61,799 nt of DNA from Dehalococcoidia bacterium (GCA_023382755.1 JAHDWR010000001.1:1-61799); one strand, 5' to 3'. Counted from the stretch's first letter, positions 992 through 57,106 are shown. Made by a program: numbers and translations. The notes: generated from the sequence alone by a model not told the origin.

Positions 992-1002
992 GGTCGATAC
1001 TC

Positions 1003-1260
1003 CTACATTAGGCGTTGCTGGCGCGACCCAGATTCCGAACCAAGGGCGGCGTCGGTGACTCCCGATGCCGCTTGACTGGCGATCCAGGCGTCGAGCGACG
1101 TCCGCGGGACACGGATTACTCTACCCAGTCGGACGCAAGGAAGCTCCCGTCGCGCCACCAGCTCATAGGCGAGGTTGCGCGAAATGCGGAGCAGCTTCGC
1201 GGCCTCCGGCACTGTCAGCAGGTCGGACTCGTGGCCGTTGTAGCTTGCATGATCGTTCAT
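1003..1260 (-). CDS. xis: Excisionase-family helix-turn-helix DNA-binding protein
   Basis: ...DLLTVPEAAKLLRISRNLAYELVARRELPCVRLGRVIRVPRTSLDAWI matches the excisionase/MerR-like HTH pattern. I chose the start at MNDHASYNGH (ATG at 1260), which overlaps the stop of the upstream gene; the track ORF extends to 1338. Confidence 0.75.
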   Translation of the reverse strand: MNDHASYNGHESDLLTVPEAAKLLRISRNLAYELVARRELPCVRLGRVIRVPRTSLDAWIASQAASGVTDAALGSESGSRQQRLM

Positions 1261-9471: not shown

Positions 9472-9508
9472 CTCCTCATCGGTGTTTGAGGAAAGCGTGC
9501 TGGTCGCC

Positions 9509-9579
9509 GTTCCATGGGCGTTCCAGGATCGGGGCCGAGGCGTTCCAACTTCGGCCCTTCTGTTCGAAATCCGCTCCAA
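9509..9579 (-). promoter_or_regulatory. Array A: five phased heptamers (GTTCCAA family on the + strand, TTGGAAC in the sense of the downstream minus-strand operon)
   Basis: GTTCCAT 9509, GTTCCAG 9520, GTTCCAA 9542, GTTCGAA 9562, GCTCCAA 9573. Offsets are 11/22/20/11. The proximal copy is 38 nt from the prgI-like ATG. Spacer sequences are unrelated. Confidence 0.7.
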
Positions 9580-10131
9580 TTGCTGCCAGGTCAGGGCGTT
9601 TCCGCATCTGTGTCGCGGAGGAATACCGCCCTCCACCAGGACCCGCCCGGTCCGTGGCTTATGGCGATCGAGGGAGACGACGGCACGGTTGCGATAGACG
9701 AGCCGGCCTGGCGGCATGCGGGTCGGGCCGCCGAGGAGCGCGGTGCAAAAGGGACGAACTCCTGTGAGCCGTAGACTCTGCTTATGAACCCCATCGCAGG
9801 ATCAATTGCTAGCGCAACCGCCTCCTTCGCCGGCAAGAAGGTGTCTGACTACCCGAGTTGCGGCCCGCCCTCGCGGCGGCCGATTTCCGAGCCACCTATG
9901 ATGGGTGGTCTTCGCGGCGCCTCGTGCCCCGCGCACTCTCGCGAGCGAGTCGACCGGAGCTTCACATTCGGAAGCACCGCCCGCGCTGCGTCGCCTTTTA
10001 ATGGACAGGAGACGGGTGAGGGGTGACTAACGCACGAGCGCCTGGGGCCAGGCCAACGTGGCAAGCTGAGCAGCGACGGTAATTCATCGGCGGTCTATGC
10101 TCCGCTCCCGAAGAGCACGGCCAACGTTCGT

Positions 10132-11928: not shown

Positions 11929-11940
11929 GCTGGAACGAGC

Positions 11941-13428: not shown

Positions 13429-13529
13429 GCCCAGAGGCCGGGCTGCCGGGCACGCCTTGCGCCGCATGATCGGCGTTGAACAAACGTCAGCATGTCGTTG
13501 GGGCTCCCGAAGTCCGTGGCGACGGGTCG

Positions 13530-13612
13530 TTGGAACGAAACGAGAGCGAAATTGGAACAGACACCCCCCAGATTGGAATAGCCCCCTCCGAATCCTGGAA
13601 CGCTGAAGGAAC
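13530..13612 (+). promoter_or_regulatory. Array C: five phased heptamers (TTGGAAC family, sense orientation) upstream of the T4SS mating-channel operon
   Basis: TTGGAAC 13530, TTGGAAC 13552, TTGGAAT 13573, CTGGAAC 13595, AAGGAAC 13606. Offsets are 22/21/22/11. The array ends 51 nt before the ATG at 13663. Confidence 0.7.
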
Positions 13613-13662
13613 GCCAATTCGCAGTCTGACTCATCACGGCCTCCTGGCCGCTGGAGTCAGAT

Positions 13663-14895
13663 ATGCGCATCTTCGCCCTCACCGTACTTGCACTGGGATT
13701 GGCCGGCGCACTGGTGGTTGGAGCAGCCTCCGCCAGCGCGCAGGAGGCCGACGACACGCTGGACGAGCTGTCGTCGGCCGGCATCCCTCTCCTCAACAGC
13801 CCGCCTGCGCCAACCCCGCAACAGGTCCCGCCCGGCCAGCCTGGCCCGGAAGGTCAGCCGCCGCCGGATACGCTGGTCGACCTCCCGATCCCCGACCCGA
13901 CGGACTTGATCCCCAACCCCCTGGACTGGCTGCCCGGCAGCCTCAACCCCGTGAACTGGGCGAAGGACATCGTCAACGCGGTGTTCACGCTCATCGGCCA
14001 GGCGATGCTGGAGGCGATCCGCGGGTTCGTCGACTGGGCGCTGGGCATGGGAGGCTCATCGCTCAACTTCGTCACGCGCACCCCTGCCGAAGGCACCTAC
14101 GATAGCCCGACCGTCCGCAGCCTCTACGACTTCTCCCGCGCCATCGTGAACGCCGCGCTTGCGGTCGTCGTCATGTGGGGCGGCTTCAACGTCATCATTA
14201 AGGAGCACACCAGGTCGCCCTACCACGAGGCGATGGAGCTGCTTCCGCGCGTCATCCTCGCAGCGCTCGCCGCCAACCTGACGCTCGAGTTCGCGCGGAT
14301 GCTGATCGACATCAACAACGCCCTCGCCGCCGGCGTTGGCGACGTCGGCCTCCCCGGGTACGACCAGGCCACACCCTCGCAGGAGGGCCTGGCACTCATC
14401 TTCACCGCCGTCGCCTACGGCATCGTGGCGATCCTCCTGGTCTTCCAGATGCTGATGCGCCTCGCCCTGCTGGCGATGCTCATCGTCCTTGGGCCAATTG
14501 CCGCGCTGCTCTGGGTGCTGCCACAGACCCAGCAGTGGACGCGCTGGTGGACCGACCTCTTCGTGATCACCGTCTTCCAGCAGACAGTCCAGGTCATGGT
14601 CCTGGCGCTCGGCACTGCGCTGATGGTCGAGCTGACCCCCGGCAGTGTCTCCAACGCCCTTCTGACGATGCTGCTCGGTCTGGCGGTTTGCTGGCTGACC
14701 CTCAAGGTCCCCTCGCTCCTGCGCTCGGCCCGCAGCCAGGCCGGCATCACCAACGTCCTCACCTTCGCGATGGCCACCCACGCGCTTGGCGCGATGGCGG
14801 GAGCGGGTCGCGCTAGCGCTGCGGCGGGCGGCGCCGGGGCCGCTGGTGCCGGTGGTGGCGGGGCTGCTCCGCGGCCAGCAGCGGGAAGGGCCTAG
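13663..14895 (+). CDS. VirB6/TrbL-like polytopic membrane protein with a signal peptide, a Pro-rich segment and a Gly/Ala-rich tail
   Basis: Signal peptide MRIFALTVLALGLAGALVVGAASASA, then at least 6 hydrophobic helices (for example ALIFTAVAYGIVAILLVFQMLMRLALLAMLIVLGPIAALLWVL). Position next to the hydrolase and pilin genes. Confidence 0.6.
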   Translation: MRIFALTVLALGLAGALVVGAASASAQEADDTLDELSSAGIPLLNSPPAPTPQQVPPGQPGPEGQPPPDTLVDLPIPDPTDLIPNPLDWLPGSLNPVNWAKDIVNAVFTLIGQAMLEAIRGFVDWALGMGGSSLNFVTRTPAEGTYDSPTVRSLYDFSRAIVNAALAVVVMWGGFNVIIKEHTRSPYHEAMELLPRVILAALAANLTLEFARMLIDINNALAAGVGDVGLPGYDQATPSQEGLALIFTAVAYGIVAILLVFQMLMRLALLAMLIVLGPIAALLWVLPQTQQWTRWWTDLFVITVFQQTVQVMVLALGTALMVELTPGSVSNALLTMLLGLAVCWLTLKVPSLLRSARSQAGITNVLTFAMATHALGAMAGAGRASAAAGGAGAAGAGGGGAAPRPAAGRA

Positions 14896-14904
14896 GAGGA
14901 CGCC

Positions 14905-15840
14905 GTGAACACGAACCCACCCACCGGCGACATCTTCGGCAGCGTCGGTAGCGAGGGACTCAAAGTCGCGGGCGTTATCGGCGTCGTCATGCTCGCACCG
15001 ATGCTCTTCGTCATGTCCGCGCTTGGCGGCACTCCGGGCATCGCCCAGTCTCCAGCTTCCGCCGCGGCCCTCGCCGAGATTCCCGCCGACCACCTGGCCG
15101 TGATGCAACAGGTGGCTGCTGCGACGGGCATCCCCTGGCAGGTGCTCGCCGCCATCGCCAAGGTCGAATCGGGCTTCGGCGCGAACATGGGCCCGAGCTC
15201 GGCCGGCGCCCTTGGCTACTGCCAGTTCATGCCCGCGACCTGGGCCTACTACGGAGTCGACGGCGACCGCGACGGCGTGGCCGACCCCTTCAACTACCAC
15301 GACTGCCTACCCGCCGCTGCGCAGCTCCTGCTCGGCAGCGGAGCGCCCGGTGACCTCCGGCGTGCGCTCTACGCGTACAACCACTCCTGGTCCTACGTGG
15401 ACCACATCCTCAGCATCGCCACCAGTTACGGCTACCTCGACCGGGCGGGCATCCCAGCGCAGGCGGTCGCCCTGGCGCGATCCCGGCTCGGGTTGCCCTA
15501 CGTGTGGGGCGCGGCGGGGCCGGAGAGCTTCGACTGTAGCGGGCTCACCCAGTGGATCTACGCCCAGCTCGGCATCCCCCTGCCGCGCACGTCGCAAGCA
15601 CAGTTCAACGTGACGATGCCCGTCGCGCTGGAGTTCCTCCAGCCGGGCGACCTCCTCTTCTACGAGAACACCTACCCCTCCCACGAACGCATCACCCACG
15701 TCGGCATCTACGCCGGAAACGGCGTCGTGATCATGGCCACACAGCCCGGCGAGTTCGTGAAAGAGGTGTCGCTGGACAACGACTACTGGAGTCGCCACTT
15801 CGCCGGCGCCGCCCGCCCCGTGAAAGGACCGCAGGCATGA
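14905..15840 (+). CDS. Bifunctional cell-wall hydrolase: lytic transglycosylase (SLT) plus NlpC/P60 endopeptidase (VirB1/TcpG/PrgK analogue)
   Basis: SLT block LAAIAKVESGFGANMGPSSAGALGYCQFMPATW. NlpC/P60 block GLPYVWGAAGPESFDCSGLTQWIY...ITHVGIYAGNGVVI. GTG start at 14905 preceded by AGGAGGA. Confidence 0.85.
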   Translation: MNTNPPTGDIFGSVGSEGLKVAGVIGVVMLAPMLFVMSALGGTPGIAQSPASAAALAEIPADHLAVMQQVAAATGIPWQVLAAIAKVESGFGANMGPSSAGALGYCQFMPATWAYYGVDGDRDGVADPFNYHDCLPAAAQLLLGSGAPGDLRRALYAYNHSWSYVDHILSIATSYGYLDRAGIPAQAVALARSRLGLPYVWGAAGPESFDCSGLTQWIYAQLGIPLPRTSQAQFNVTMPVALEFLQPGDLLFYENTYPSHERITHVGIYAGNGVVIMATQPGEFVKEVSLDNDYWSRHFAGAARPVKGPQA

Positions 15841-16355
15841 GCGGCGGACGTGGCGTGATGGTCATCCTCGGCGGGCTCGCCGCCACCCTGCTGGTGATCG
15901 CCATCGTGAGTGGCTGGCAGGGCGCGAACCGTCTGCGTGGCCAGGGCGAGGATATGGGCGAGGTGGAAGAAGCGGCCCGGCTCTTCGTCGAGGCCTACGG
16001 GACCTTCGACTTTCGCGAGCCGGCTGCTTACCGCGAGCGTCTGCTGAGCCTCACCACCGGCGACGTACACGACGCGGTCGCCGCCTCACAGGTCGATCCC
16101 AACGCTCTCGGCCAGCAGCAGACCATGGTGACCGGAACGGTCACGATCCAGGTCACGGCCTACTCGGACACCGAGGCGACCGTGTCAGCGACCACCGAAC
16201 AGACCCGCCGCGCCGTCGACGCCACAACCGGTCAGCTGCGTGAGCAGCGGCTCCGCCAGCACGTGACCTGCCGGCTGCTTCGCATCGACGGCCGCTGGCT
16301 CGTGGCCGAGTTCCGGCTGCGGTCGGAAGAACCCCTTGAGAACACCGGCAGATAG
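15837..16355 (+). CDS. Membrane-anchored protein with a single N-terminal TM and a putative NTF2-like domain; possible VirB8 analogue
   Basis: MSGGRGVMVILGGLAATLLVIAIVSGW, then a soluble domain ending ...LLRIDGRWLVAEFRL. The ATG at 15837 overlaps the hydrolase stop (ATGA). The fold assignment is inference only. Confidence 0.45.
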   Translation: MSGGRGVMVILGGLAATLLVIAIVSGWQGANRLRGQGEDMGEVEEAARLFVEAYGTFDFREPAAYRERLLSLTTGDVHDAVAASQVDPNALGQQQTMVTGTVTIQVTAYSDTEATVSATTEQTRRAVDATTGQLREQRLRQHVTCRLLRIDGRWLVAEFRLRSEEPLENTGR

Positions 16356-19337: not shown

Positions 19338-19340
19338 TGC

Positions 19341-23410: not shown

Positions 23411-23433
23411 TCGCTCTATTATCCGTGCGCCGC

Positions 23434-45617: not shown

Positions 45618-48600
45618 CTAACGCGCGGCAGCTCTCGGCCCGGCCACTTGCTCCAGCACCTTCGTCGTCTCCGGCATCGGCTCCGCTCGCTCGTCATCGA
45701 GCGCCGCACGCAGATCCTCGATGAGCGTCTTGTACAGGCGTTTCGCGGAGTTCCGGTCGCCCGTCGCGGCGTGACACCGCATCGCTTCGCGCACGGCCTC
45801 CTCGTCGATGGGGTCCCTTTGCAGGACGGCGTCGTAGAAGCTAAGGGCGAGCTTCGGGTCACGCAGGTCACGCGCCAGCTTCGCGGCCCGGTGGGCTGCC
45901 GTGATGAACCGCTTCTGGTAGTCGCGCCGGTAGGCGTCGGCCCATTCGTAGTCTTCGTCGGCGAGGAAATCGGACGTGCAGAGTTCCAGCGCCCGCTGGT
46001 ACTCGACCAAGGCGTCAAAGCCCTGGAGGCGCTCGGCCCGCGCGAGATGTGCGTCGAAGGCGTCCACGTCTGTGCGGAAGATGCCTGTCCGAAGCGTGTA
46101 GCGCTGGCGCGCAGCGACGAGGATCTCGCCCTCGAGATCCGGGACTGCCCGGCTCAGGGTGCGACGGACGTAGTAGGCGGCGTTGGGCAGCGGGTGCCCT
46201 CCCTGGTTCTCTCCGCTTAGCCCGAGTGCCTCTGCTGCCGTATCTCGCAGGACCGGCGAGCCGCCGTGGGCGAGAAGGTAGGCGAGCAGCTCCCGCGCCT
46301 TCTGGATCGACCAGCCATCGACCTCTCCGGCGTCTGTCTCGACACGGAACGTCCCAAAGAGACGCGCCCGGAACACGGGACCATCCTCGCTGTCCGACTC
46401 CCCGTCGGTGCCATCGAGCGGGAGCGATGCCTGTCTGTCCGCGGACTTGGGAGGCATGGCGTCCGGCTCCTCGAGAACCCTCACCGCCTCTTCCGGATGG
46501 GTCTCGTTCCACGATAGAGGGGCTGCCAGATCGGTGGCATCAGTGGACGCGTAGCCGTCCGCGAACCGTTCTTCGTCGATCTCCGGCCAGGTTTCCGATG
46601 GGGCGTGGCCGTTGTGAGGTGCTGACGATGTCGGGGACTCGGGCGTCGCAGGCACGGGCGTTGCCGTATTCGCGCGAGGGCGGTGCGCAACCTGCCGCCG
46701 GACCACGACAGGCTCCAGGTGGAGCGGAGGCAGCTGAGGCGGGGTCAGCGTGATCATGCCGGGCTCCCCGGACTGCTCGCCTTCGCCGAAGACCACACTG
46801 GCTCCGAAAGAATGCCGCGTGTCGGCGGCCTCGACCAACTCGGCGAAGGCGATCACGAAGATACCTCGCCCTGGACCCTGCCGAAGGATGCCTTCCATCT
46901 CAGCAACGGTGCTGGCTGGCTCGGGGTTCGGCCCTACCAGCGTCAGGAGCGCAGGCGCTTCCTGGTCCCCCTCGCGCGCGAACAGCATGCTCTCGAGCCA
47001 TCGGGCGAAGGCCGCAGGCGAGTCCGCGGGCGGACCGGCGTCGGCTGGACCTGGCAACAGCCCCAGGCAGTCGCTGAGGGAAGCCCCCGCAGCCTCGTCC
47101 GCGACTGCGGTGATCGTGCCTTCTGGATGGAGCGAATCGAGGGTGGCGAACCAGCTCGTGAGGAGGTCGCGTCCCTCCAGCCGTCCACCAACGACGAGGA
47201 CGCTGCCGACGGCTGCGAGGTTGAGGTAGTGGATGCCGGAATCCGAAGCACCGACCGGCACGAGGAGTGGCTGATGGCTGTCGCCTGTATCACCGAGGAG
47301 CGCCGCCGCCAGCTGATTCATGCGCGAGAGCTTCAGCCGGACGGCCGTCGCCCCCAGGAGCTCGCCATCGACGGCGCATCCGAGCTGGCGGCCGAGTGCG
47401 TAGCGAGATTCGACCAGCGCCTCGGCATCGCCAGGCGGGCAGTCGAGCGTGAACTCCAGGTAACGGTCGGATTCGCGGGCGAGGACGATGGCCGTGGCGG
47501 CGAAATCAAGCTCCGCCAGTGCCGACAGGAGCGCGGTACTCGTCGCCAGCACGCGGGCCGCATCGCCGGACCCTGCTGGCCGGCGTTCGGGGCGTCCGTT
47601 GGAGTGCCAGGCCCGGCGCCGCGCTCGTCGAAACACCAGCAGCATCGCCGCCCCACCGACCGTTATCACGGCTGCCGCGGCCACGACTCCACCGCCGGGT
47701 GTCGGCACCGATGGCAGGGAGGGCCGAAGCTCCGGCCCGGCGCCGTCGTCATCCGCTGGAGCGATGGGGCCACCCGGGATCACCGTGGGTGTTGGCGTGG
47801 GGACGACCGCTGTGGGTTCCGGGGTCGGTGGAACAGGGGAGGGTTCGGGCGTCGGTTCCGGCTCCGGCGTCCCACCGGGGCCGTCGGCCTCGGTGACGGA
47901 TTCTGGCTCAGCGTTGCTGACGTCCTGCGGAAGTTCCAGCTGCCAGCCGGCATAGATGAGATTCGGGTCCACGAAGGTCCGTCCATCCGTCATCGTGCGC
48001 TGCTGGTTGAGCTTCCAGATCTCGACCCAGCGAAATCCGTCGCCGAGGAAGCGTTCCGCGATGCCCCAGAGGTGGTCGCCTCGCGCCACGGTGTAAGTAT
48101 CAGGGACGGTTTCCACCGCCACCGCTGGCGCGGCCGTTGACGGGACGGTGGCCGGTTCGGCGAACACAGCCACGTGTCTCTCAACCGGCGCCTCGACGCT
48201 TCTGCTGATCGGGGCCGCGGCTGCGATCGCAGCCGACGGCATGTGGAACGTGGCACTGACCAGGATCGTCCCGGCGAGGGCGCCATCGACCACACGGCGT
48301 ACAAGCGGGAGCGTCAGCGGGGCGGTGACGCGAAGCCCGCCCCTTGCCCATGCTGCCTGATCCGTGAGGACGGCGGCCAGGCCGAACGCGAGCCGTACCA
48401 CGATGGACAGCAGCAGGTACGCCACCACGAGCCAGGCGATGCCGGTCGTCACCGTGATGACGTCCTGGTCGCTCAGCCGGGAGCCAGTCAATACGGTCTG
48501 GATATGACTCCAGTCCGGCGTCGAGGCCAGCATGCTGGGTGGCCCGGTCATCGCCCAGAGGCCAATCGCGACCGCGATGCACGCGGCCACCAGCGCGACC

Positions 48601-48662
48601 AGGCCGAGCCATCCTCCGTCCGCCTCTTGTCCTCGACTGGTCGCGAGCTCGCGTGTACTCAT
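45618..48662 (-). CDS. Membrane-anchored LysM protein with a C-terminal SARP module (OmpR-type winged helix plus BTAD)
   Basis: N-terminal TM helices (GWLGLVALVAACIAVAIGLW, IAWLVVAYLLLSIVVRLAFGLAAVL). LysM YTVARGDHLWGIAERFLGDGFRWVEIWKLN...IYAGWQLELP. Pro-rich tract, then TM VVAAAAVITVGGAAMLLVF followed by RRARRR. SARP RARLFGTFRVETDAGEVDGWSIQKARELLAYLLAHGG...YVRRTLS...DVDAFDAHL...YEWADAYRRDY...LQRDPIDEEAVREAMRCHAATGDRNSAKRLYKTLIEDL. Confidence 0.75.
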   Translation of the reverse strand: MSTRELATSRGQEADGGWLGLVALVAACIAVAIGLWAMTGPPSMLASTPDWSHIQTVLTGSRLSDQDVITVTTGIAWLVVAYLLLSIVVRLAFGLAAVLTDQAAWARGGLRVTAPLTLPLVRRVVDGALAGTILVSATFHMPSAAIAAAAPISRSVEAPVERHVAVFAEPATVPSTAAPAVAVETVPDTYTVARGDHLWGIAERFLGDGFRWVEIWKLNQQRTMTDGRTFVDPNLIYAGWQLELPQDVSNAEPESVTEADGPGGTPEPEPTPEPSPVPPTPEPTAVVPTPTPTVIPGGPIAPADDDGAGPELRPSLPSVPTPGGGVVAAAAVITVGGAAMLLVFRRARRRAWHSNGRPERRPAGSGDAARVLATSTALLSALAELDFAATAIVLARESDRYLEFTLDCPPGDAEALVESRYALGRQLGCAVDGELLGATAVRLKLSRMNQLAAALLGDTGDSHQPLLVPVGASDSGIHYLNLAAVGSVLVVGGRLEGRDLLTSWFATLDSLHPEGTITAVADEAAGASLSDCLGLLPGPADAGPPADSPAAFARWLESMLFAREGDQEAPALLTLVGPNPEPASTVAEMEGILRQGPGRGIFVIAFAELVEAADTRHSFGASVVFGEGEQSGEPGMITLTPPQLPPLHLEPVVVRRQVAHRPRANTATPVPATPESPTSSAPHNGHAPSETWPEIDEERFADGYASTDATDLAAPLSWNETHPEEAVRVLEEPDAMPPKSADRQASLPLDGTDGESDSEDGPVFRARLFGTFRVETDAGEVDGWSIQKARELLAYLLAHGGSPVLRDTAAEALGLSGENQGGHPLPNAAYYVRRTLSRAVPDLEGEILVAARQRYTLRTGIFRTDVDAFDAHLARAERLQGFDALVEYQRALELCTSDFLADEDYEWADAYRRDYQKRFITAAHRAAKLARDLRDPKLALSFYDAVLQRDPIDEEAVREAMRCHAATGDRNSAKRLYKTLIEDLRAALDDERAEPMPETTKVLEQVAGPRAAAR

Positions 48663-49600
48663 TGCCGCTGCCCCGTCAGCACGGACTGGAGCTGCTGGAC
48701 CGGGTAGTCATCACTGAACAACCGGGTGATCGGGTCGAGCGGTTCCCACGCGCCGCCGTTGACGCGGTACCGGGCCGCGAATGTGACCTCCACCGTGATG
48801 CTGTAGGCGCCGCCGGCCGCCAGCGACGACTGTTCATAGACGTGGCGGATGTCGCTCTCAGCGGGATAACGCTGCCCGAGTGATGTCGTCTCAGCGGTCG
48901 TCCCATCGCCGAAGGACCAGCGGTAGACCAGCGGCTCGATCTCCACGTCAACCGTGACACCGGGAAGCGCGTCCGATGAGCTGATGGCCGAGCCGTCGTA
49001 GCCATCGATCCAGAACCAGGACGACAGTGCGACGAGACCGGTCGCCGGGTTGGCTTCGATGGCGATATCCGGGATTGGGAGATGGTTAAGGAGTTCGAGG
49101 GCGACGGCCACCGGGTCCACGCCGTCTTCGTCAACGAAAACCACCTGGACGTTCCCGCCAGCTGGCGTGCCCACCGGAATCCAAATGAAAGCGAAGAAGC
49201 CGTCATCGCAGCTCACGCTGCCGAAGACGTGGTCGGGATGAGCTGCCTGCTCAGCCTGGTACCAGGAAGAGTTCGAGAGCACGATTCCGATGTTCTGAGC
49301 GCTGATGCGGCAGGAGCGCGAGTTGCCGGTGCTGACCGACGTATTAGAAGTTGAACCCGGTGCACTTCCCGGCGACGCTTGCGTCACGCGGATGAACACC
49401 GTTACGCCATTCGGTCCAGACTGCACCGTGGCGGCTGCCGTTTTGGAATTGCTGCGAGGCGTTCCGGCACCACCCGGAGTCGGGTCGTCCGCCAGCACGG
49501 CCAGGGGAACGACGAGAGCCAAAGCCGCGGCCGCCAGGCACACCAACCACCTGCGAGTGCCCCGGGCTAGTTCTGCCTGATGCTCCGGATGACTATCCAT
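48659..49600 (-). CDS. Secreted protein with a C-terminal PKD-like domain
   Basis: Signal-like RRWLVCLAAAALALVVPLAVLA. PKD-type motif YRWSFGDGTTAETTSLGQRYPAESDIRHVY. Confidence 0.55.
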   Translation of the reverse strand: MDSHPEHQAELARGTRRWLVCLAAAALALVVPLAVLADDPTPGGAGTPRSNSKTAAATVQSGPNGVTVFIRVTQASPGSAPGSTSNTSVSTGNSRSCRISAQNIGIVLSNSSWYQAEQAAHPDHVFGSVSCDDGFFAFIWIPVGTPAGGNVQVVFVDEDGVDPVAVALELLNHLPIPDIAIEANPATGLVALSSWFWIDGYDGSAISSSDALPGVTVDVEIEPLVYRWSFGDGTTAETTSLGQRYPAESDIRHVYEQSSLAAGGAYSITVEVTFAARYRVNGGAWEPLDPITRLFSDDYPVQQLQSVLTGQRQ

Positions 49601-50109
49601 TGTCCATCAACCTTTTCGAGGAAGAACGTGTCGACCAGGGTCTCACCGCTGCCTTCGCCTTCCGGAGGCTCATGAGTCTCGGGATCCACGTAGAAGCTGT
49701 TGTTCGTCATCTCGTCGAACACGGTAGCCGTCGTGTCCGTCAGCTCGATGACGGTTGGTCGATGCTCAATCACGACACGGAGCGCAACGCCCTGTGCACG
49801 AAACGTCTCTATCTCCTCCTTCACCTGCTGCAGTTCCTCCTCTGACGCCGCCCCCATGAGGACACTGTGGTCGAGATTCAGAACGGCTTCGGCGTAGAGA
49901 TCCCAGTAACGGAGATAGGCCGCGATCACCTCTGCCTCGGTGCCCGGAGTGGCGGTCGGCTGCGAAGCGGTCGGGTTGGCCGTTGGCGAGGTGATGGTGG
50001 CGGTCGTGGTTGGCGGAGATTCGTCATCGCTACCACCGCAGGCTGCCGCGAGCATCAGCGCGCTCCAGCCGAGCGCCAAAGCAATGCCAACCGTCCCGTT
50101 CATGCACAT
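49567..50109 (-). CDS. Lipoprotein (lipobox LAAC), possibly with an NTF2-like fold
   Basis: MCMNGTVGIALALGWSALMLAAACGGSDDE; C-terminus ...FFLEKVDGQWIVIRS. Confidence 0.55.
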   Translation of the reverse strand: MCMNGTVGIALALGWSALMLAAACGGSDDESPPTTTATITSPTANPTASQPTATPGTEAEVIAAYLRYWDLYAEAVLNLDHSVLMGAASEEELQQVKEEIETFRAQGVALRVVIEHRPTVIELTDTTATVFDEMTNNSFYVDPETHEPPEGEGSGETLVDTFFLEKVDGQWIVIRSIRQN

Positions 50110-50114
50110 GCCTC

Positions 50115-50546
50115 CTACGGTCCCGCCGTCTCGACGCCGTAGCGTGGTTCTGCGGACGCGCTGGCGCTCACTTCGACGCCATCGATGCCGATGACACGGA
50201 GGAACCCGGTCGTTGCTTGCCTCGACACCGAGACCTCCACCCGGTCCGGCAGGACGTTGACGACGTAGTCAAGACCACCTTCGGCGTCCAGGTAGAGCAC
50301 GGCCGCATCGCGGGCCAGCTGTTCGTCGATGACCACTTCACCGGTCGAGCGGTAGGCGGCCTCGTCTATTTGCATCGCTCCGGCGGCCGCGGCAGCGTCG
50401 GCGACGTTCTGGAGGTCGCGCCGCTGCGCGAACACCAGCCCGCCATCGGAGACGAGCCCGACGACGCTCACGACGCCAACCATCATCAGCGCGACCATCA
50501 CGAGCACCTGGCCCTCTTCACCGTGCAGCCGGCGGACGACGTTCAT
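50115..50546 (-). CDS. TadG-like/Tad_N pseudopilin-type protein
   Basis: GEEGQVLVMVALMMVGVVSVVGLVSDGGLVFAQRRDLQNVADAAAAAGA. Confidence 0.65.
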   Translation of the reverse strand: MNVVRRLHGEEGQVLVMVALMMVGVVSVVGLVSDGGLVFAQRRDLQNVADAAAAAGAMQIDEAAYRSTGEVVIDEQLARDAAVLYLDAEGGLDYVVNVLPDRVEVSVSRQATTGFLRVIGIDGVEVSASASAEPRYGVETAGP

Positions 50547-50992
50547 CGCGCAGCTACCTCCCGGCTCCGGTAGATGTCGATCCGCTCCGAGTGGCTGGCG
50601 CCCACGTCTACATCGAAGAAACTCAACAGCGGCAGGTCGGAGAGCGACACGTTGTAGCGGACTTCGGACATCACGGTTCCGCCACGGGCGAAACCACCGG
50701 AATCGACCTCGACAGTGAGCCGGTCGCTGTCGAGTCCGTAGCCATCGGCGACGTTCTCCCCGACCGTCAGCGCATCCGCGATGCCCTGCTCTTCTGAGGG
50801 CGCGACCGCCAGCGCCCTGCTGGACTCTCGGGCAGCTGCCTGCACCGCAATCTTCGCCTCGACCACGCGGCCGGCCGCGACCACCCCGAAGACGAGCACG
50901 AGTAGGACCGGAATCGCGAGCGCCGCCTCGACGAGCGCCTGCCCGGACTCACCAGCTGCCTCCTGCGTGTCCATGCGGAGTCTACGGACCAC
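50543..50992 (-). CDS. TadE-like pseudopilin
   Basis: ESGQALVEAALAIPVLLVLVFGVVAAGRVVEAKIAVQAAARESSR. Confidence 0.7.
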   Translation of the reverse strand: MVRRLRMDTQEAAGESGQALVEAALAIPVLLVLVFGVVAAGRVVEAKIAVQAAARESSRALAVAPSEEQGIADALTVGENVADGYGLDSDRLTVEVDSGGFARGGTVMSEVRYNVSLSDLPLLSFFDVDVGASHSERIDIYRSREVAAR

Positions 50993-51404
50993 TGCGGAAG
51001 CCCTCCTTCCGCATTTCCGCCGCGGCGTCGATCGAGATAGTCTGGTTGGCCAGCCACGGGATGATGAGCGGGTAGCCGCCGGTGGTGGTCACGGTGATCC
51101 ACTCATCCGAGTCCTCGGCCGTCACGGCGAACCCATCGCCGACGCCTCCAAGCCCTGACCGCAGGACATCCAGCGTCCGCGCCTCGGCGGCCACGGCGTC
51201 GCCATCTTCGGCCGCACCGAGCCGGGCGCCTTCCTGGGCCGCCGTCGTCGCGACATTCTGCGCGTGGTGGACCAGCGCGAACTGGACGACCCCGATCAGC
51301 ACGAGGAGAAGCAGCGGGAGCACGAGCGCGAACTCGACCATGCTCTCGCCCGCCTCACCGGTCGCGGGCGACCGGTGCCCGCGCCTAGATGCCAGCCAGT
51401 TCAT
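50982..51404 (-). CDS. TadE-like pseudopilin; start uncertain and overlaps the flp 3' end
   Basis: GEAGESMVEFALVLPLLLLVLIGVVQFALVHHAQNVATTAAQEGAR. Confidence 0.65.
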   Translation of the reverse strand: MNWLASRRGHRSPATGEAGESMVEFALVLPLLLLVLIGVVQFALVHHAQNVATTAAQEGARLGAAEDGDAVAAEARTLDVLRSGLGGVGDGFAVTAEDSDEWITVTTTGGYPLIIPWLANQTISIDAAAEMRKEGFRSGP

Positions 51405-51561
51405 CAGTGATGCTCTCGAAGACGTCGACAACACCGCCGCCGAGAGTCTCGACCGCGGTGAGGGCTACCACTGCGATGAGCGCAGTGATAAGGGCGTACT
51501 CCACCATCGACTGGCCACGTTCGTCGGTGCGTAAGGCGAGGATGCGTCGGAGCAGCTTCAT
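51385..51561 (-). CDS. flp: Flp-family type IVb pilin; 58 aa, below the ORF-track cutoff
   Basis: My own translation gives MKLLRRILALRTDERGQSMVEYALITALIAVVALTAVETLGGGVVDVFESITDELAGI. It has the Flp motif G/xxMVEYAL. ATG at 51561, stop at 51385-51387. Confidence 0.8.
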   Translation of the reverse strand: MKLLRRILALRTDERGQSMVEYALITALIAVVALTAVETLGGGVVDVFESITDELAGI

Positions 51562-51589
51562 GAGGTTCTCCTTTCTGCGTGGCCTCGTC

Positions 51590-52534
51590 TCAGTCGCTCA
51601 GCCCGAGCAGCTGCACGCCTGCCGGGTAGAGCAGGACGACGAGGAAGACGGGGAAGATGAAGAGGGCGACCGGGAAGAGCATGCGGACGCTGCTCTTCTC
51701 CCCCTCGGCGATAAGGGTGGTGCGCTTCCGCTCTCGCACGGTGTCGGCGAGCGTCAGCATCACCTGACCCAGCGGCAGCCCCTGTTCGAGCGCCGACTGC
51801 CAGGCGTCGGCCATCGAGACGATCTCCTGGACGCCCTCGCGTGCAGCCAGCGCCCGCAGCCCCTCCGGGTGGGTCATGGTGCCGAGCCCCGCCTCGCGGG
51901 CGACGTTGCGAAGGCCCTCGCCGAGGACGCCCTTCATTTGCCGGCTCACGTCCAGGAGCGCCTGCTCCGGAGACAGTCCGGCACTGGCCGCCATCGCGAG
52001 CAGGTCGAGGACGGTCGGCAATTCCATCAGGACTTGTTGGCGTCGGCGCGCGACGCGCCGCTCCAAGAGCACATCAGGCTGGATGAAGCCGAGGAACCCA
52101 CCGGCCAGCCAGGTCCAGATCGGCCAGGGCCCGAAGGGATGCAGGCCCACGAGATTGAGGGCCGGGAAGCAGGCGAAGAAGAGGAGGCCAACGGCCAGCT
52201 TCTGCCCGAAGAACTGGCTGGGCGTCATCCCCGGCCAGCCGACCGCTAGGCGCTGTTCGAGGTCGGCCATCCGCACGCCCAGGCGCGCCAGCAGCCGGCC
52301 AACCAGCCTGCCTGCGTCGTCCAGGACGGGGCGCAGCGTCCGCTCCAACGCCGGCGAAACGAACATCGATGGCCCCGCCTGCAGGCGCTCAGCTTCCATC
52401 TCGATCCGCCCCTGGGCCGACAGGCGCCGCAGCTCGAATGCCAGGTCCGGCCTGCGCCGGGCCCACGGCAGGCTCGTGACCACGAGCCAGAGCCCAAGAC
52501 CGAAGAGCCCGGCGACCGCCAGCCCCGCCGTCAT
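51590..52534 (-). CDS. tadC: TadC (type II secretion F-family inner-membrane platform protein)
   Basis: LPTVLDLLAMAASAGLSPEQALLDVSRQM...LPLGQVMLTLADTVRERKR; C-terminal TM LFPVALFIFPVFLVVLLYPAG. Confidence 0.75.
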   Translation of the reverse strand: MTAGLAVAGLFGLGLWLVVTSLPWARRRPDLAFELRRLSAQGRIEMEAERLQAGPSMFVSPALERTLRPVLDDAGRLVGRLLARLGVRMADLEQRLAVGWPGMTPSQFFGQKLAVGLLFFACFPALNLVGLHPFGPWPIWTWLAGGFLGFIQPDVLLERRVARRRQQVLMELPTVLDLLAMAASAGLSPEQALLDVSRQMKGVLGEGLRNVAREAGLGTMTHPEGLRALAAREGVQEIVSMADAWQSALEQGLPLGQVMLTLADTVRERKRTTLIAEGEKSSVRMLFPVALFIFPVFLVVLLYPAGVQLLGLSD

Positions 52535-53388
52535 TGCAGCACCCGCTCTTCACCCGGCAGACGGGTCGCCCGGAGCATCCCCGCGTAGCCGACGGCGACG
52601 CTCAGGAGGCAGAGCGCGAGGACCCCCTGCCCCTCCGCCGACGAGAACACGTCCAGGTAGTCGGGGTTGAGGCCGCGGATGACGAGGATGAGGGCCAGGG
52701 GCAGCGCGGCGATGATCCGCGCCGAGAGGACGTTCTTGGCCTGGTGAGCGCGGAGCTCCTGCTCGACCTGGATGGTCTGCCGCACGGAGCGGCTGAGCGC
52801 CTCGAGAACGGTGCTGAGGTTGCGGCCGCCGACCCGGTGCGACATCAGTAGTGCAGCGGCGACCATGTCGAAGACGGGATCGGCAATCCGCTCGCGCGAG
52901 CGTCGGATCGCTTCTTCGAAGCCGCTGACCCGGAGGTCGCGGGCAAGGTCAGTCAGAGGTGGACGGAGCACCTCCGGCCCGTTCCTGGCCAGCGACGCCA
53001 GCGCCTCCTCGACACTCATCCCGGCGCGCACGGCCGAGCGCAGCGAATCGACGGCCTCCGCGACGGCCGACTGCATCGTTGTCCGCTCGCGCTGATGGCG
53101 GTTGGTCAGATACCAGGCGGGCAGCGTGACACCGAGGAGGAAGGCGGCGGCGCTGACCATCGGCCAGCCAAGAGCCAGCTGGCCGGCAAGGGCAAGGGCC
53201 ATCCCCGTTGCTGCACTCAGGAGGATGAAGTCGCGCACGCCGACCTGCCCCGCGTTATTCCGGTCGAGGAAGGCCCGGAGCGTCGAGCGCCGCGGCTGCT
53301 CCTGGCGCGCCGGCGCCCAGCGCGTGGTCGCCGAGAGGAAGACCAGGAGCAGTCCCACGGCGAGGGTGAGCGACAGGATCAGGGGCAT
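52531..53388 (-). CDS. tadB: TadB (type II secretion F-family platform protein)
   Basis: MPLILSLTLAVGLLLVFLS...AVDSLRSAVRAGMSVEEALASLARNGPEVLRPPLTDLARDL...VGGRNLSTVLEALS. Start ATG at 53388 preceded by GGGAGG; the track extension to 53652 covers the repeat array and is implausible. Confidence 0.75.
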   Translation of the reverse strand: MPLILSLTLAVGLLLVFLSATTRWAPARQEQPRRSTLRAFLDRNNAGQVGVRDFILLSAATGMALALAGQLALGWPMVSAAAFLLGVTLPAWYLTNRHQRERTTMQSAVAEAVDSLRSAVRAGMSVEEALASLARNGPEVLRPPLTDLARDLRVSGFEEAIRRSRERIADPVFDMVAAALLMSHRVGGRNLSTVLEALSRSVRQTIQVEQELRAHQAKNVLSARIIAALPLALILVIRGLNPDYLDVFSSAEGQGVLALCLLSVAVGYAGMLRATRLPGEERVLQ

Positions 53389-53424
53389 CGGACACCTCCC
53401 GAGCACCCCATCCTGCCTGCCGTA

Positions 53425-53557
53425 GTTCCAATTCCGTTCCAACATCCGCGCCCATTCGTTCCAATCCGGGCCCGTTCGTTCCAACTTCGTTCCAATCGCT
53501 GGCGCGGCGACGCGATCCGTTCCGATCTCGCTCCAAAGGCGATGCTCATCGCTCCAA
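53425..53557 (-). promoter_or_regulatory. Array B: eight phased GTTCCAA-family heptamers in the cpaF-tadB intergenic region
   Basis: GTTCCAA at 53425, 53436, 53458, 53478 and 53489. GTTCCGA 53519. GCTCCAA 53530 and 53551. Offsets are 11/22/20/11/30/11/21. The proximal copy is 37 nt from the tadB ATG. The first four offsets are identical to array A. Confidence 0.75.
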
Positions 53558-54856
53558 CCCCCGCCGATTGCCGTCCAGACTGGCGCCGACTGGGGTGGGA
53601 GCGCGATCCAGCCGGTCCCATGGGAACGCCCCGCCATGCAGCCGGGCAGCAAAGCGCGGGCGAATGCCGGTCCAGCGCAGCGCGCCTTCGCTGAGGCCGA
53701 AGAGGTCGCTGCCGGCTACGGTGTCGCCTTCGAGGCCCGTCACTTCGTAGACGTTCGTGACGACCCGGCGGGCGCCGGCCGGGTCCAGGCGGAGGTGGAC
53801 CACGAGGTCGATCGCTTCCGCGATCATCTCGGTCACTGCCTCGGCGGGCAGCGCCTCCTCGGCCATCATCGCGTACATCCGCAGCTTCGAGAGCGCCTGG
53901 CGCGGGCCGTTGGCGTGGATGGTGCACATCGAGCCTTCGTGCCCGCTGTTCATCGCGGCGAGCATGTCGAGCGCCTCCGCGCCCCGGACCTCACCGACGA
54001 TGATCCGGGTCGGGCGCATGCGCAGAGCGTTCTTCACCAGGCTGCGGATTGGGAAGGCGCCGGCCCCCTCGACGTTTGGCAGCCGGGCCTGCAACGCCAC
54101 GCAGTCGGGGAGGGTCCCCTCAAGGTGGAGTTCGCCCGTCTCCTCGATGGTGACGACCCGCTCCTCCGTCCCTGCGATGGAAGCGCCCAGGGCGTTGAGG
54201 CAGGTTGTCTTGCCGCTGCCGGTCCCGCCCGAGATGAGGATGTTGAGACCCGCCTCGACTGCTGCTTCGAGGAAGGCAGCCGCTTCCTCCGGGAGCGTGT
54301 CGAGCGCGACGAGGTCGGCCAGGCTGCGCGCCCGGAGCAGGAACTTCCTCACGGTCACGTGCGTGTAGCGCGTGGTCAGCGGCGGGATGATAGCGTTCAG
54401 GCGTGAGCCGTCTGGCAGACGCGCGTCCACCAGCGGGCTGGTCTCGTCGAGCCGGCGTCCCAGCCGGCCGACCGCCCGGCGGACGACCCGGAGCAGGTCG
54501 GCGTCGTCTTCGAAGACCACGTCGGTCAGGCGCTTCTGGCCGCGCTCGATGACGAACGTCCTGTGCGGGCCGTTGACGATGATCTCTTCAATTCCGGCGT
54601 CGTCGAGCAGCGGCTGGAGCGGGCCCAGCCCGAGGATCTCGTCGACCAGCCGGTTTGCAAGGCCTTCCGGGTCGGGCAGCGGCGATTCTCCGACCGAGGC
54701 CGCGCGGTGGTTGGCGGCATCGACCAGCCTGCGCACCACCTGCCGGACCTCATCGTGCTCGTCGGCAAGCGCGTCGAACTCGACGACGCGCCGCAGCTCC
54801 TCCCGGACCTCGTCGCGGAGCGTCTGCTCGAGCCGGGATGCGGCCGGGTTGGCCAT
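53546..54856 (-). CDS. tadA: CpaF/TadA secretion ATPase
   Basis: Walker A ILISGGTGSGKTTCLNAL, VVTIEETGEL, RIIVGEVRGAEALDML, GHEGSMCTIHAN. Start MANPAASRLE (54856). Confidence 0.85.
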   Translation of the reverse strand: MANPAASRLEQTLRDEVREELRRVVEFDALADEHDEVRQVVRRLVDAANHRAASVGESPLPDPEGLANRLVDEILGLGPLQPLLDDAGIEEIIVNGPHRTFVIERGQKRLTDVVFEDDADLLRVVRRAVGRLGRRLDETSPLVDARLPDGSRLNAIIPPLTTRYTHVTVRKFLLRARSLADLVALDTLPEEAAAFLEAAVEAGLNILISGGTGSGKTTCLNALGASIAGTEERVVTIEETGELHLEGTLPDCVALQARLPNVEGAGAFPIRSLVKNALRMRPTRIIVGEVRGAEALDMLAAMNSGHEGSMCTIHANGPRQALSKLRMYAMMAEEALPAEAVTEMIAEAIDLVVHLRLDPAGARRVVTNVYEVTGLEGDTVAGSDLFGLSEGALRWTGIRPRFAARLHGGAFPWDRLDRAPTPVGASLDGNRRGLER

Positions 54857-54857
54857 G

Positions 54858-56096
54858 TCACCGCCTCCCCTCGGCCGGCTGGCGGCGCCAGCGGCGCAGC
54901 GCGGACACTTCTTCGGCGGTGGATTGCGCTTCGACGTCACCGGCGCCGGCCAGTCGCGAGGCCAGCTCGGCGATGGTGCGGGCAGCCTTCCCTCCGGCTG
55001 TGATGATTGGGGTCTGGTCCGCCCGCGCGCGCCGCGCTGCCCGCACGTCCTCGGGGATTGCGGCGACCACGCGGATCCCGAGGGCCCGCTCCACCTCCGG
55101 CGCGCCGTAGTGATCGCGTCCGGTGCGACGGTTGACGATCGCGGAGACGGCCTCCGCTGGGACGCCCAGCGACTCGGTCACGAACCGCAACGAAGCACGG
55201 GCATTCCAGAGCCCGAGCAGGTCGGCCGTCGTCACCAGCAGGACGCGCTCGGCCGAGCTGAGGAAGGCTGTTCCGACCGCCGACGTGACGCCGCTGAGGG
55301 TCTCGCCGGCGTCGATGAGGATGACGTCGAAACGCTCCTGCAGCGCGGAGACTGCCCCGGCGATGCGCTCCGGCGCCAGGCGCTCCTGAGCTTCAGGACG
55401 CTCGACACCGGTGAGGATGGAGAAGCCCAGTCCATCCTGGAGCTCGTCGAGAACACGCTCCGGTCGATCGATCGGCCCGGCGCTGAGCCCTGACAAACCA
55501 CGGCGTGGATCGAGGTCGAGGTAGGGGCCAATGGATCCGCCGCGGAGGTCGCCGTCGACCAGCACGATGCTCCTCTTGCTCGCGCCCAGGGTGGCGGCGA
55601 GACCGATGGCAACGGTCGTGGTCCCGGGTGCCCCTTTCCCGCTGACCAGAGCGATGACTTCACCGTCTCCCAGGTAGCCGTGTTCGCCCCGTTCGGGCGT
55701 CGAGAGCCCGTCCGTTGCGACTTGGCTAACCACCGCGCCACGGCGGATGGCCTCATGCAGTGCGGCTATGACGACCGGTCCGTCGCTGGCTGCTGGGAGC
55801 ACGTACGAAAGCCCGGCGTAGGCCTCCGCCTCCGTGGGCCCTGCGAGGAGGACCATCGGTACGCCTGCCTCCCGCACGGCAATGAACGACTCGCCTGTCA
55901 GTCGGTGCAGGCCTGCCGAAGCGAGCACCGCATCGACATTCCCGGCGATCGCCTGTTGAACGAGCGAGGGGCCGTCGAGGCAGCGTCCGGCAATGGTGCA
56001 CCCGCCGTCGCGCAGCGCGGTCAGGAGTTGCCGCTCGCGCTCGGGGTCGCCGATGGCGAGGAGGACACGTGGCGGCCGGTCGCTGGCGTCGCTCAT
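54858..56096 (-). CDS. tadZ: TadZ/CpaE-like protein (receiver-like N-domain plus ParA/MinD-type ATPase)
   Basis: RVLLAIGDPERERQLLTALRDGG...; deviant Walker A VIALVSGKGAPGTTTVAIGLA; VLVDGDLRGG. Confidence 0.75.
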   Translation of the reverse strand: MSDASDRPPRVLLAIGDPERERQLLTALRDGGCTIAGRCLDGPSLVQQAIAGNVDAVLASAGLHRLTGESFIAVREAGVPMVLLAGPTEAEAYAGLSYVLPAASDGPVVIAALHEAIRRGAVVSQVATDGLSTPERGEHGYLGDGEVIALVSGKGAPGTTTVAIGLAATLGASKRSIVLVDGDLRGGSIGPYLDLDPRRGLSGLSAGPIDRPERVLDELQDGLGFSILTGVERPEAQERLAPERIAGAVSALQERFDVILIDAGETLSGVTSAVGTAFLSSAERVLLVTTADLLGLWNARASLRFVTESLGVPAEAVSAIVNRRTGRDHYGAPEVERALGIRVVAAIPEDVRAARRARADQTPIITAGGKAARTIAELASRLAGAGDVEAQSTAEEVSALRRWRRQPAEGRR

Positions 56097-56116
56097 AGCG
56101 TTGCCTCTGAGTTGGG

Positions 56117-56803
56117 TTATGGCTGCAAGCTGGTCTCCTGGGGCGCGAGGAGGACGACGGTGATGGTCGCGTTCGCGACGGCATGGGCGATGGCTTCCGC
56201 TTCGGAACGCGGGACGGCGAGGGTGATGTTGGCGACGGTGGCGCCGTCGTTGGGGTCGTCGGATGCGGTGGTTCGGATCACCCGCCGCTCCAGCCCGATG
56301 GCGAAGACGGTCGCGCGGTCGAGCAGCGTGACGGTCGTGCTCTCTGGTTTGCCGGCGCTGCGGGTTGCCAGCAGGGCAACTTCGTCGGTCGGCCGGAGGC
56401 CGGGATAGATAGTGTCGGCTACGACGGGGATGGTGACGGCAACGTCGTCGGCGCCGAGCACCGGTCCAGCCGCGAGGTCGGGGTGTACCACCATCTCACC
56501 GGCGTGGATCGTTGTGCTCGTTGTGCGGCCCACCGCTGCGTCCAGATCCGCTTCTGACAGCGCCATCGACGCGAGGCTGCCGTCGAGACGCGCTTCACCA
56601 ACGGTCAGGTCGTCGCGCTGGATGACGTGGCCGGGAGGGATGTCCCTCGCTGCGATCAGGATCGGCGTCGTATCCGTAGCGCTCCGCCAGAGGAGCAGCC
56701 CGCCAGCCAGCGATACCACAACGAGCAGGATGCCTGCCAGCATCCTGCGGTCTACACGAACGGGAAACGCGACGTCGGCCCGGCGTCTTAGGCCGGGCAG
56801 CAC
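56117..56803 (-). CDS. cpaB: CpaB/RcpC-like Flp pilus assembly protein (SAF domain)
   Basis: RRMLAGILLVVVSLAGGLLLW (TM), then ILIAARDIPPGHVIQRDDLT. Start uncertain: GTG at 56803 or 56809, or ATG at 56743. Confidence 0.65.
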   Translation of the reverse strand: MLPGLRRRADVAFPVRVDRRMLAGILLVVVSLAGGLLLWRSATDTTPILIAARDIPPGHVIQRDDLTVGEARLDGSLASMALSEADLDAAVGRTTSTTIHAGEMVVHPDLAAGPVLGADDVAVTIPVVADTIYPGLRPTDEVALLATRSAGKPESTTVTLLDRATVFAIGLERRVIRTTASDDPNDGATVANITLAVPRSEAEAIAHAVANATITVVLLAPQETSLQP

Positions 56804-57106
56804 CGCCACGGATCGGTCTCCGTCTGCACCTGAGCGACCCCTGCACTGTGACTCCAGGGAGCGCCCTGGTGCCCGCCAGAGTGCCATAACGGGCGACCCC
56901 GCGAGGCCAATCTTTTCCCGGCGTTAAAGAGATCGCAACGTCCCGGGCGAGAATTTACAACCGTTTCACAATCCTGCCGCAGCCGTTTTTCAAGGGTTAA
57001 GGAGGCACGCTTGCGACGGGGTTTAGGGGCTCCCGAAGATCTCGCCTGGAGCGGTCTCACCGCGCCCCGGCAGGGCGGAACCGGTCTCACAAGCCGTGCG
57101 AGTCCA

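Follow-up and report, generated by a model that had tools for sequence, protein, structure and literature searches.

A putative membrane-tethered SARP-type regulator of mobile Tad pilus and conjugation modules in Chloroflexota

The regulator and its closest described relatives

The SARPs known from actinomycetes are soluble proteins that activate antibiotic clusters, and in AfsR, the 'large' SARP of Streptomyces coelicolor, as in EmbR of Mycobacterium tuberculosis, an OmpR-type winged helix is followed by a BTAD. Here we analyse a protein with the same pair of domains, encoded by the final gene of a Tad pilus operon in a 61,799-nucleotide stretch from a Dehalococcoidia bacterium (GCA_023382755.1, JAHDWR010000001.1:1-61799), the whole of which is called the window. 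The gene (45618..48662, minus strand) was delimited by its open reading frame (ORF), which ends exactly at these bounds, and by a GC content at third codon positions of 0.79; it encodes a 1014-residue membrane protein with LysM, FtsK-like and SARP parts. We think it likely, from its sequence and predicted structure, that this protein, hereafter the regulator, is a membrane-tethered one-component SARP-type activator, specific for a mobile Chloroflexota module that combines a Tad pilus with a type IV secretion system (T4SS) like that of an integrative and conjugative element (ICE). Its apparent role is the control of a mobile element's pilus and conjugation system.

Described SARP targets have repeats spaced by 11 or 22 bp, the 3' repeat being 8 bp away from the -10; their promoters have a suboptimal -10, such as CACTGT, at which the SARP replaces -35 recognition (PMC10936776). 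As in AfsR-type sites, where direct repeats of 11 or 22 bp end near a weak -10 and no -35 is present, the putative sites of the regulator place their last repeat 8-9 bp from a -10-like hexamer. Both proteins join the SARP domain to a P-loop NTPase-type domain; the SARP domain is C-terminal in the regulator and N-terminal in AfsR, and its partner is a predicted FtsK/EccC-like pseudo-ATPase in the former and a STAND NOD with TPR in the latter. Unlike AfsR and EmbR, the regulator is predicted to be membrane-anchored with an extracytoplasmic LysM domain, it belongs to Chloroflexota instead of Actinomycetota, its putative targets, in place of antibiotic clusters, are a mobile element's genes for pilus and conjugation, and the arrays of its modules reach 8 repeats.

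In activators of the ToxR/TcpP/CadC type, too, one polypeptide has a domain outside the cytoplasm, an anchor in the membrane and a winged helix of OmpR type, which reads direct repeats near the promoter. The family profile of the regulator matched the CadC DNA-binding domain weakly (E 0.15). The ToxR-like order, an N-terminal cytoplasmic winged helix, a single transmembrane (TM) helix and a C-terminal periplasmic sensor, is reversed in the regulator, whose winged helix is C-terminal after four predicted TM helices and is accompanied by a BTAD and an FtsK-like domain; its outside domain is LysM, in contrast to the periplasmic sensor fold of ToxR-like proteins. By analogy the regulator would work like this class, of which it is not a member.

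A third comparison is with TraB of Streptomyces. This FtsK-like hexamer binds peptidoglycan, and with its C-terminus it recognises direct repeats of 8 bp in clt (PMC4447253). TraB and the regulator are both membrane-associated, with an FtsK-like fold and a C-terminal DNA reader for short repeats, and both belong to a conjugative element. TraB, however, is an active ATPase motor whose repeats mark a transfer locus, whereas Walker A and B are lost in the regulator and its repeats stand at putative promoters. The C-terminus of TraB is an FtsK-gamma-like winged helix and that of the regulator is of OmpR type with a BTAD, which sets it outside the TraB family; in contrast to the TraB setting, a classical system of relaxase, coupling protein and VirB4 is present on the element of the regulator as well. 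Among single domains, those of EccC/EssC from type VII secretion match the regulator's P-loop domain best in structure. EccC/EssC ATPase domains are membrane-anchored, and some of them are regulatory and not catalytic. The regulator has one such domain, against three in EccC/EssC, without a conserved GK[ST] and fused to a transcription-factor domain, and no type VII secretion genes were found near it.

Text searches of the literature found no paper on this architecture or on SARP control of Tad or ICE genes. The parts are known, namely SARP, LysM, the FtsK fold and membrane-bound one-component activators (ToxR, CadC); what is new is how they are combined, in which phylum and for which targets, together with a natural series of heptamers that are module-specific. 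The DNA-reading, polymerase-recruiting SARP module would here be fused, in another phylum, to a membrane anchor, a LysM domain and a dead FtsK-like domain. To our knowledge mobile elements of Chloroflexota are almost unstudied, and the regulator, if confirmed, would be a simple and testable switch for horizontal gene transfer in this phylum. The module-specific heptamers would likewise offer natural SARP/target-site pairs, usable for DNA-recognition rules or as orthogonal activator/promoter parts.

Domain architecture and membrane topology

An earlier note on this DNA had claimed a DnrI/RedD/AfsR-like C-terminus, and this was borne out by the Pfam match to BTAD, by Trans_reg_C in homologues and by Foldseek alignment to AfsR and EmbR. 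The OmpR-type winged helix covers residues 764-864 (46071..46373, minus strand, as for all parts of the protein) and the all-helical, TPR-like BTAD residues 865-1007 (45642..46070). Pfam BTAD (PF03704) was matched at residues 864-1005 with an E-value of 1.1e-8 and 36 bits (cut-off 22.1); it was present in all 41 scanned homologues, directly after the winged helix, and Trans_reg_C matched 29 of the 41 (best E 9e-6). The regulator was modelled with AlphaFold2 on 64 homologues. Residues 764-1007 of the model, with a predicted local distance difference test score (pLDDT) of ~90, matched the SARP part of AfsR in the transcription initiation complex (8k60/8hvr) with a target-normalised TM-score (TMt) of 0.72-0.74 in a Foldseek search of the PDB, and EmbR (2fez) with a root-mean-square deviation of 3.6 A. 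The predicted recognition helix comprises residues 823-839, HPLPNAAYYVRRTLSRA, and W784, K788, E791, N827 and R833 of the winged helix are invariant in the homologue alignment. Sequence and model together thus predict for the regulator both the winged helix and the BTAD of the SARP family.

The FtsK/TcpA/EccC-like P-loop domain, predicted to be cytoplasmic (residues 368-651, 46710..47561), was overlooked in the earlier reading, although its ~290 residues make up a third of the regulator and its pLDDT is ~85-90. Foldseek searches of the PDB matched it to the FtsK motor (6t8b/2ius, E ~1e-10), to TcpA (6o1x) and to EccC/EssC (TMt ~0.55), and EccC 4nh0 was the sole sequence-level match of its profile (E 0.0016). 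The Walker A position reads GGRLEGRD, and 'GGPQTGKST' of EccC aligns to the family sequence 'aGsele.tre', with GKST on '.tre'; Walker B was placed by eye at 'LLTLVGP'. The homologue alignment shows no conserved Lys, Ser/Thr, Asp or Glu at the Walker A and B positions, and Pfam FtsK_SpoIIIE matched none of the 41 members at E <= 0.05. Thus, of the features of the FtsK/SpoIIIE/EccC class, the RecA-like fold is predicted in the regulator, and Walker A GxxxxGK[ST] and Walker B hhhhDE are absent. Because the Walker residues are missing, the domain aligns with EccC and FtsK_SpoIIIE is not matched, we classify it as an FtsK/EccC-like pseudo-ATPase. A phmmer search with this domain against 1.84 billion representative proteins returned 51 clusters, nearly all of 900-1200 residues and with the domain at the same position, which indicates that by sequence it is confined to the regulator family. 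Kinship with the element's own coupling protein was rejected, since a profile comparison between that protein and the pseudo-ATPase domain gave a probability of 6%.

At the N-terminus the several TM helices, the LysM domain and the Pro-rich tract of the earlier note were all recovered, by hydropathy, Pfam and AlphaFold2. Of the four predicted membrane helices, the third and fourth are separated by the LysM domain and its Pro-rich stalk. The N-terminal membrane region (residues 18-142, 48237..48611), delimited by hydropathy, AlphaFold2 helices and invariant columns, contains two TM helices (18-39 and 65-99), a stretch of amphipathic character and, at ~124-142, a weak TM segment; AlphaFold2 draws the third helix at 104-138, and its end part (~124-142) is the membrane-spanning candidate. 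Y82, R90, W105, T117, P119, R122 and D126 of this region are invariant in the homologue alignment. The LysM domain (residues 189-245, 47928..48098), probably extracytoplasmic, was matched by Pfam at residues 190-245 with 21.2 bits against a cut-off of 20.9 in the window protein and was found in 41 of 41 scanned homologues (best E 1.3e-15), many of which have two copies. The AlphaFold2 secondary structure at 189-243 agrees with the beta-alpha-alpha-beta order of LysM, and the family profile matches the LysM domains of Kbp/YgaU (Kbp E 4e-8) and TsaP. By family membership the domain is a predicted peptidoglycan binder. Most of the distant family members (for instance proteins P0079-P0120 and those of loci L027, L037 and L046) have two tandem LysM domains and a length of 1100-1200 residues, and relative to them the clade of the window has lost one LysM.

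The LysM domain is followed by the disordered stalk (residues 248-325, 47688..47921; 27% Pro, pLDDT <50) and, by hydropathy and AlphaFold2, by the last TM helix (residues 327-352, 47607..47684), after which RRARRR lies on the predicted cytoplasmic side. A disordered, acidic and poorly conserved linker (residues 656-759, 46386..46697; pLDDT <50) places ~100 residues between the FtsK-like domain and the winged helix. The topology check that the earlier note had called for was run as hydropathy and AlphaFold2 together with the positive-inside rule; it upheld the membrane anchor, and the sides follow from the rule. Because the N-termini of homologues are basic and Arg clusters lie at 107-123 and 344-349, the N-terminus is predicted inside, LysM outside and everything after residue 352 inside.

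Heptamer arrays, putative promoters and their candidate binder

When TTGGAAC was searched with at most one mismatch, it formed three clusters in the window, at 9509-9579, 13530-13601 (with a degenerate copy up to 13612) and 53425-53557. Exact TTGGAAC was counted 11 times where 3.4 +/- 1.9 copies would be expected; the arrays, in blocks of <=135 bp, account for 8 of the 11. Array A (9509..9579, minus strand) has five heptamers upstream of a prgI-like gene that is followed by virB4, and is equivalent to an array at 19315-19385 of locus L013; array B (13530..13612, plus strand) has four heptamers and a degenerate fifth, AAGGAAC, upstream of a virB6/trbL-like gene; array C (53425..53557, minus strand), syntenic in most related loci, has eight TTGGAAC-type heptamers between tadA and tadB, spaced by 21, 11, 30, 11, 20, 22 and 11 bp. 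The spacings over all arrays are 11, 20, 21, 22 and 30 bp, so all copies fall on one face of the helix. Within the unit, conservation is strong at seven positions and moderate for the G at position 8, and the other three positions are free.

Each array is co-oriented with the operon downstream of it (prgI-virB4; virB6 and a gene for an SLT+NlpC/P60 hydrolase; tadB), and its last repeat is followed, after 9 bp in the TTGGAAC register or 8 bp in the TGGAACG register, by a putative -10 hexamer. The hexamers, like the start codons, were assigned from the sequence: CACGCT after array A (9494..9499, minus strand), with the prgI start placed at GTG 9465 by comparison with L013; CAGTCT after array B (13622..13627, plus strand), with the virB6 ATG at 13663; and CAGGAT after array C (53410..53415, minus strand), with the tadB ATG at 53388. 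A promoter scan found no sigma-70 -35/-10 pair at the arrays, and scans for Rfam families, tRNAs and terminators gave nothing relevant. The SARP-type geometry that had been claimed for the three arrays therefore stands, with repeats in helical phase, the last of them 8-9 bp from a -10-like hexamer, and no -35; the target-site geometry of SARPs is thus found, by sequence, at three putative promoters.

The three distal, more degenerate repeats of array C (53519-53557) reach the 3' end of tadA, and the outermost one (53551-53557) lies inside the last tadA codons (stop 53546-53548), where regulatory and coding constraints overlap. No array was found upstream of cpaB (56890-57010); one degenerate heptamer, TTGAAAA, stands there 10 bp before another CAGGAT, and the two may give the first three Tad genes a weak basal promoter.

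Homologues of the regulator form more than 160 clusters, almost all of them from metagenome-assembled genomes (MAGs) of Chloroflexota, and carry the pipeline names 'LysM peptidoglycan-binding domain-containing protein', 'BTAD domain-containing putative transcriptional regulator' or 'SARP'. In the genome collection 72 regulator loci were found, with all sequences from MAGs. Most of them have an array in the tadA-tadB spacer, and the heptamer differs by lineage. TTGGAAC is shared by the window and L001-L011, TAGGAAC was found in L013, TTGGAGy / TTGGACy in L012, L018 and L019, TTGGAGT in L020, TTGGACT in L022 and L024, yTGGACC in L027, TTAGAAA in L030, TTCGAGT, with the classical SARP-like TCGAG, in L032, CAGGAAs in L036, wGGAAC in L037, GTGGAGy in L041 and L049, and GGGAGC (also written nGGGAGC) in L046. 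Equivalents of array B are present in L013, L027, L030, L037, L046, L047 and L055. The tadB and virB6 arrays of one module share the heptamer (L013, L030, L037, L046), and modules of one genome can differ in it (L024 vs L030, L046 vs L049, L047/L054 vs L055). In about 20 independent arrays, taken from lineages whose heptamers differ, 9 bp separate the last repeat from a hexamer that always has A as its second and T as its sixth base (sAnnnT), for example CAGGAT, CATTAT, GAGAAT, GAGGAT, CAGCAT, GAGCAT, CACGCT or CAGGCT. Apparent GGGAGC arrays just after the gene in L053 are an artefact, as they lie inside coding sequence with irregular spacing, and those of L044 are presumably artefacts as well.

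GGAAC is the common -35 core of extracytoplasmic function (ECF) sigma factors and is contained in TTGGAAC, and a cargo ORF of the window (24078-25019) gave a very weak match to sigma-70 region 4 (E 0.0096). It is nevertheless very improbable that the heptamers are -35 elements of an ECF-type sigma factor, or repeats without function. The last GGAAC lies 9 bp, and not 16-17 bp, from the -10-like hexamer, arrays of 5-8 phased copies are foreign to sigma promoters, TTAGAAA, TTCGAGT or TTGGACT takes the place of TTGGAAC in other modules, and the sigma-like ORF is not conserved in other modules; the spacing and the heptamer variability led us to reject the ECF reading. Chance repeats are excluded by position, phase and orientation, which are kept across 34-87% protein identity.

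The same geometry bears on whether the regulator could serve mainly in the structure or assembly of the Tad/T4SS envelope machine, as a cell-wall anchor and pseudo-ATPase hub whose DNA-binding end tethers or loads element DNA at the arrays with no activation of transcription. The domain order resembles that of TraB/FtsK (membrane part, FtsK-like fold, C-terminal DNA reader), the regulator gene is translationally coupled to the pilus genes, and TsaP, whose LysM the family profile also matches, is a pilus-associated protein. We nevertheless regard a structural role of this kind as quite improbable, because the degenerate Walker A and B argue against a motor, the DNA-binding domain is of SARP type and not FtsK-gamma, the element has its own relaxase and coupling protein, and the arrays, two or three per module, are always co-oriented with genes at a fixed 9-bp offset from the -10-like hexamer. 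Given this fixed offset, clt/TraB-like loading sites were kept as a minor rival only.

We turn to the binder of the arrays. No other conserved DNA-binding domain was found in the modules and no other winged-helix protein among the window ORFs, and between the regulator and virB6 the modules hold only a prepilin peptidase and variable cargo. As the only conserved DNA-binding domain of the module, the SARP domain is the most likely array binder, and since the heptamers are module-specific, the specificity determinant must travel with each module. Sequence comparison thus makes the SARP domain a probable candidate for the binder, an assignment based on linkage, module specificity, fold and promoter geometry, and not on a decoded recognition rule.

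The recognition helix (823-839) was compared in the 17 loci with an assigned heptamer, and is identical where the heptamer is identical and different where it differs. Every locus with a GGA core retains H823 and N827; H823 is replaced in only two of the 17 loci, the non-GGA loci L030 (K..N) and L032 (R..D), the latter also having D for N827. In Mantel tests the heptamer distance correlated with helix distance (r 0.46, p 0.001) and with BTAD distance (r 0.49). Because heptamer divergence tracks overall protein divergence equally, the covariation is not specific evidence for binding, and we rejected it as proof.

Several points weigh against the regulator as the activator acting at the arrays. 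The window protein itself scored below every Trans_reg_C threshold in the Pfam scan. A PDB sequence search with the SARP domain returned TPR-design noise only, with neither AfsR nor EmbR, so that a structure search was needed. In the clade of the window the Trp of the 'ALWP' motif, aligned by eye with the backbone-contacting W74 of AfsR, has been replaced. When BTAD divergence was controlled, the partial Mantel correlation between helix and heptamer fell to r 0.18 (p 0.12), weak and inseparable from phylogeny. One clade (L044, L045, L047, L051 and L053) has the regulator gene and no array before tadB. Finally, a membrane-tethered domain has to gain access to DNA, which could occur via the long linker or by proteolytic release.

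The lack of separable covariation and the clade without a tadB array also favour a regulator encoded elsewhere, for example an OmpR/PhoB-family response regulator, as the array binder, with other targets or none for the LysM-SARP protein. OmpR-family proteins have the same winged helix and bind direct repeats with an 11-bp period. For such a host regulator, however, the module-specific heptamers, different within one genome, would call for duplication and re-specification per module, and the modules share no conserved response regulator or other DNA-binding domain, nor was one found in the window. We hold binding by an unlinked regulator to be unlikely.

For the membrane-tethered SARP-type activator, the following mechanism may be proposed. 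Its SARP domains would bind TTGGAAC(G) units on one helix face, as 11-bp pairs and singles, and the promoter-proximal pair, 8-9 bp upstream of the weak -10 (sAnnnT), would replace -35 recognition, as AfsR does at afsS. Three units would be activated: tadB-flp-regulator, virB6 with the hydrolase gene, and prgI-virB4. The genes from tadB to the regulator probably form one transcription unit that ends with the regulator, and since array C lies upstream of the regulator in the same operon, positive autoregulation is implied and the first unit would be a positive feedback loop. More speculatively, the pseudo-ATPase domain might oligomerise or gate the protein so that several SARP domains occupy an array together, and LysM with the membrane part might sense the state of the cell wall or of assembly; the peptidoglycan or cell-contact cue of the earlier note is pure conjecture. 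The earlier note had named Tad and ICE genes as joint targets; both do bear arrays, and what it had missed was their union in a single mobile module and the autoregulation.

Alternatively, and with a good deal less confidence, the regulator might be a ring-forming membrane platform derived from TraB/FtsK, in which the dead ATPase assembles the SARP domains and anchors the element promoters to the envelope machine. The pilus and transfer genes would then be transcribed in direct dependence on machine assembly or cell-wall state, with a private heptamer code for each co-resident element. If so, several elements in one cell could be switched independently.

Operon, mobile module and defence cargo

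The Tad genes of the window follow the order cpaB, tadZ, tadA, [array C], tadB, tadC, flp, tadE, tadE, tadG-like, lipoprotein, PKD protein and regulator. The first part, cpaB/rcpC, tadZ/cpaE and tadA/cpaF, lies at 53546..56887 (minus strand; Pfam), and the part from tadB through tadC, the flp pilin gene (51385-51561), two tadE genes, the tadG-like gene and the lipoprotein gene to the PKD-domain protein gene at 48659..53388 (minus strand), as identified by Pfam, the Flp ORF and synteny. The ATG of the regulator gene overlaps the stop of the PKD-protein gene (ATGA). No prepilin peptidase gene was found among the larger annotated ORFs of the window; in compact modules a TadV/CpaA-like prepilin peptidase gene directly follows the regulator (L030 13184-13849, L037 13399-13959, L046 13416-13970).

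From cpaB to the regulator, ~30 loci keep the gene order, and in at least seven of them (L013, L027, L030, L037, L046, L047 and L048) the T4SS genes lie within 1-6 kb after the regulator. Some genomes have multiple copies of the regulator: H3_CFX4 has three, and at least five are present in OZ253555. The unit of Tad operon and regulator, in some cases with the T4SS, occurs at 2-6 copies per genome, often with different heptamers (L001/L005/L009 in one MAG; L044, L045, L047, L053, L054 and L055 in OZ253555.1; L046/L049; L024/L030). Synteny and copy number suggest that the Tad pilus is part of the mobile element, where it is possibly the mating pilus for a monoderm-type T4SS. Apparent stand-alone SARP copies in L052 (8547-10450) and L054 (9479-10769) are decayed regulator genes; they were rejected as soluble SARP paralogues, being remnants that are IS-disrupted (truncated beside a mutator-type transposase) or frameshifted. 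The virB6 array beside the decayed copy of L054 is still intact.

The ICE conjugation module of the window (2..16355, with no single strand; Pfam, PADLOC) comprises genes for an integrase cut by the window edge, a relaxase, a coupling protein, a primase, VirB4, PrgI, VirB6 and the SLT+NlpC/P60 hydrolase. A Gabija cassette (10132-13428 by PADLOC; GajA 10132-11928, GajB 11941-13428) sits exactly between the divergent arrays A and B; in L013 the virB6 and prgI arrays stand back to back with nothing between, which is the arrangement without the Gabija insertion. A defence-cargo island of 25-30 kb (16981-45614) separates the T4SS genes from the regulator. It carries a Bil-type system (BilD 16981-18354, joined by a JAB protein and DUF7665 as far as 19859), an 1150-residue protein with UvrD, PD-(D/E)XK and M78 peptidase domains (20015-23467), an Hma system (HmaC 28707-32075, HmaB 32080-35760, HmaA 40998-44576), a PRTase-CE protein (35661-36695), a TmtA-like giant protein (36805-41001) and PD-Lambda-3_B (44811-45614).

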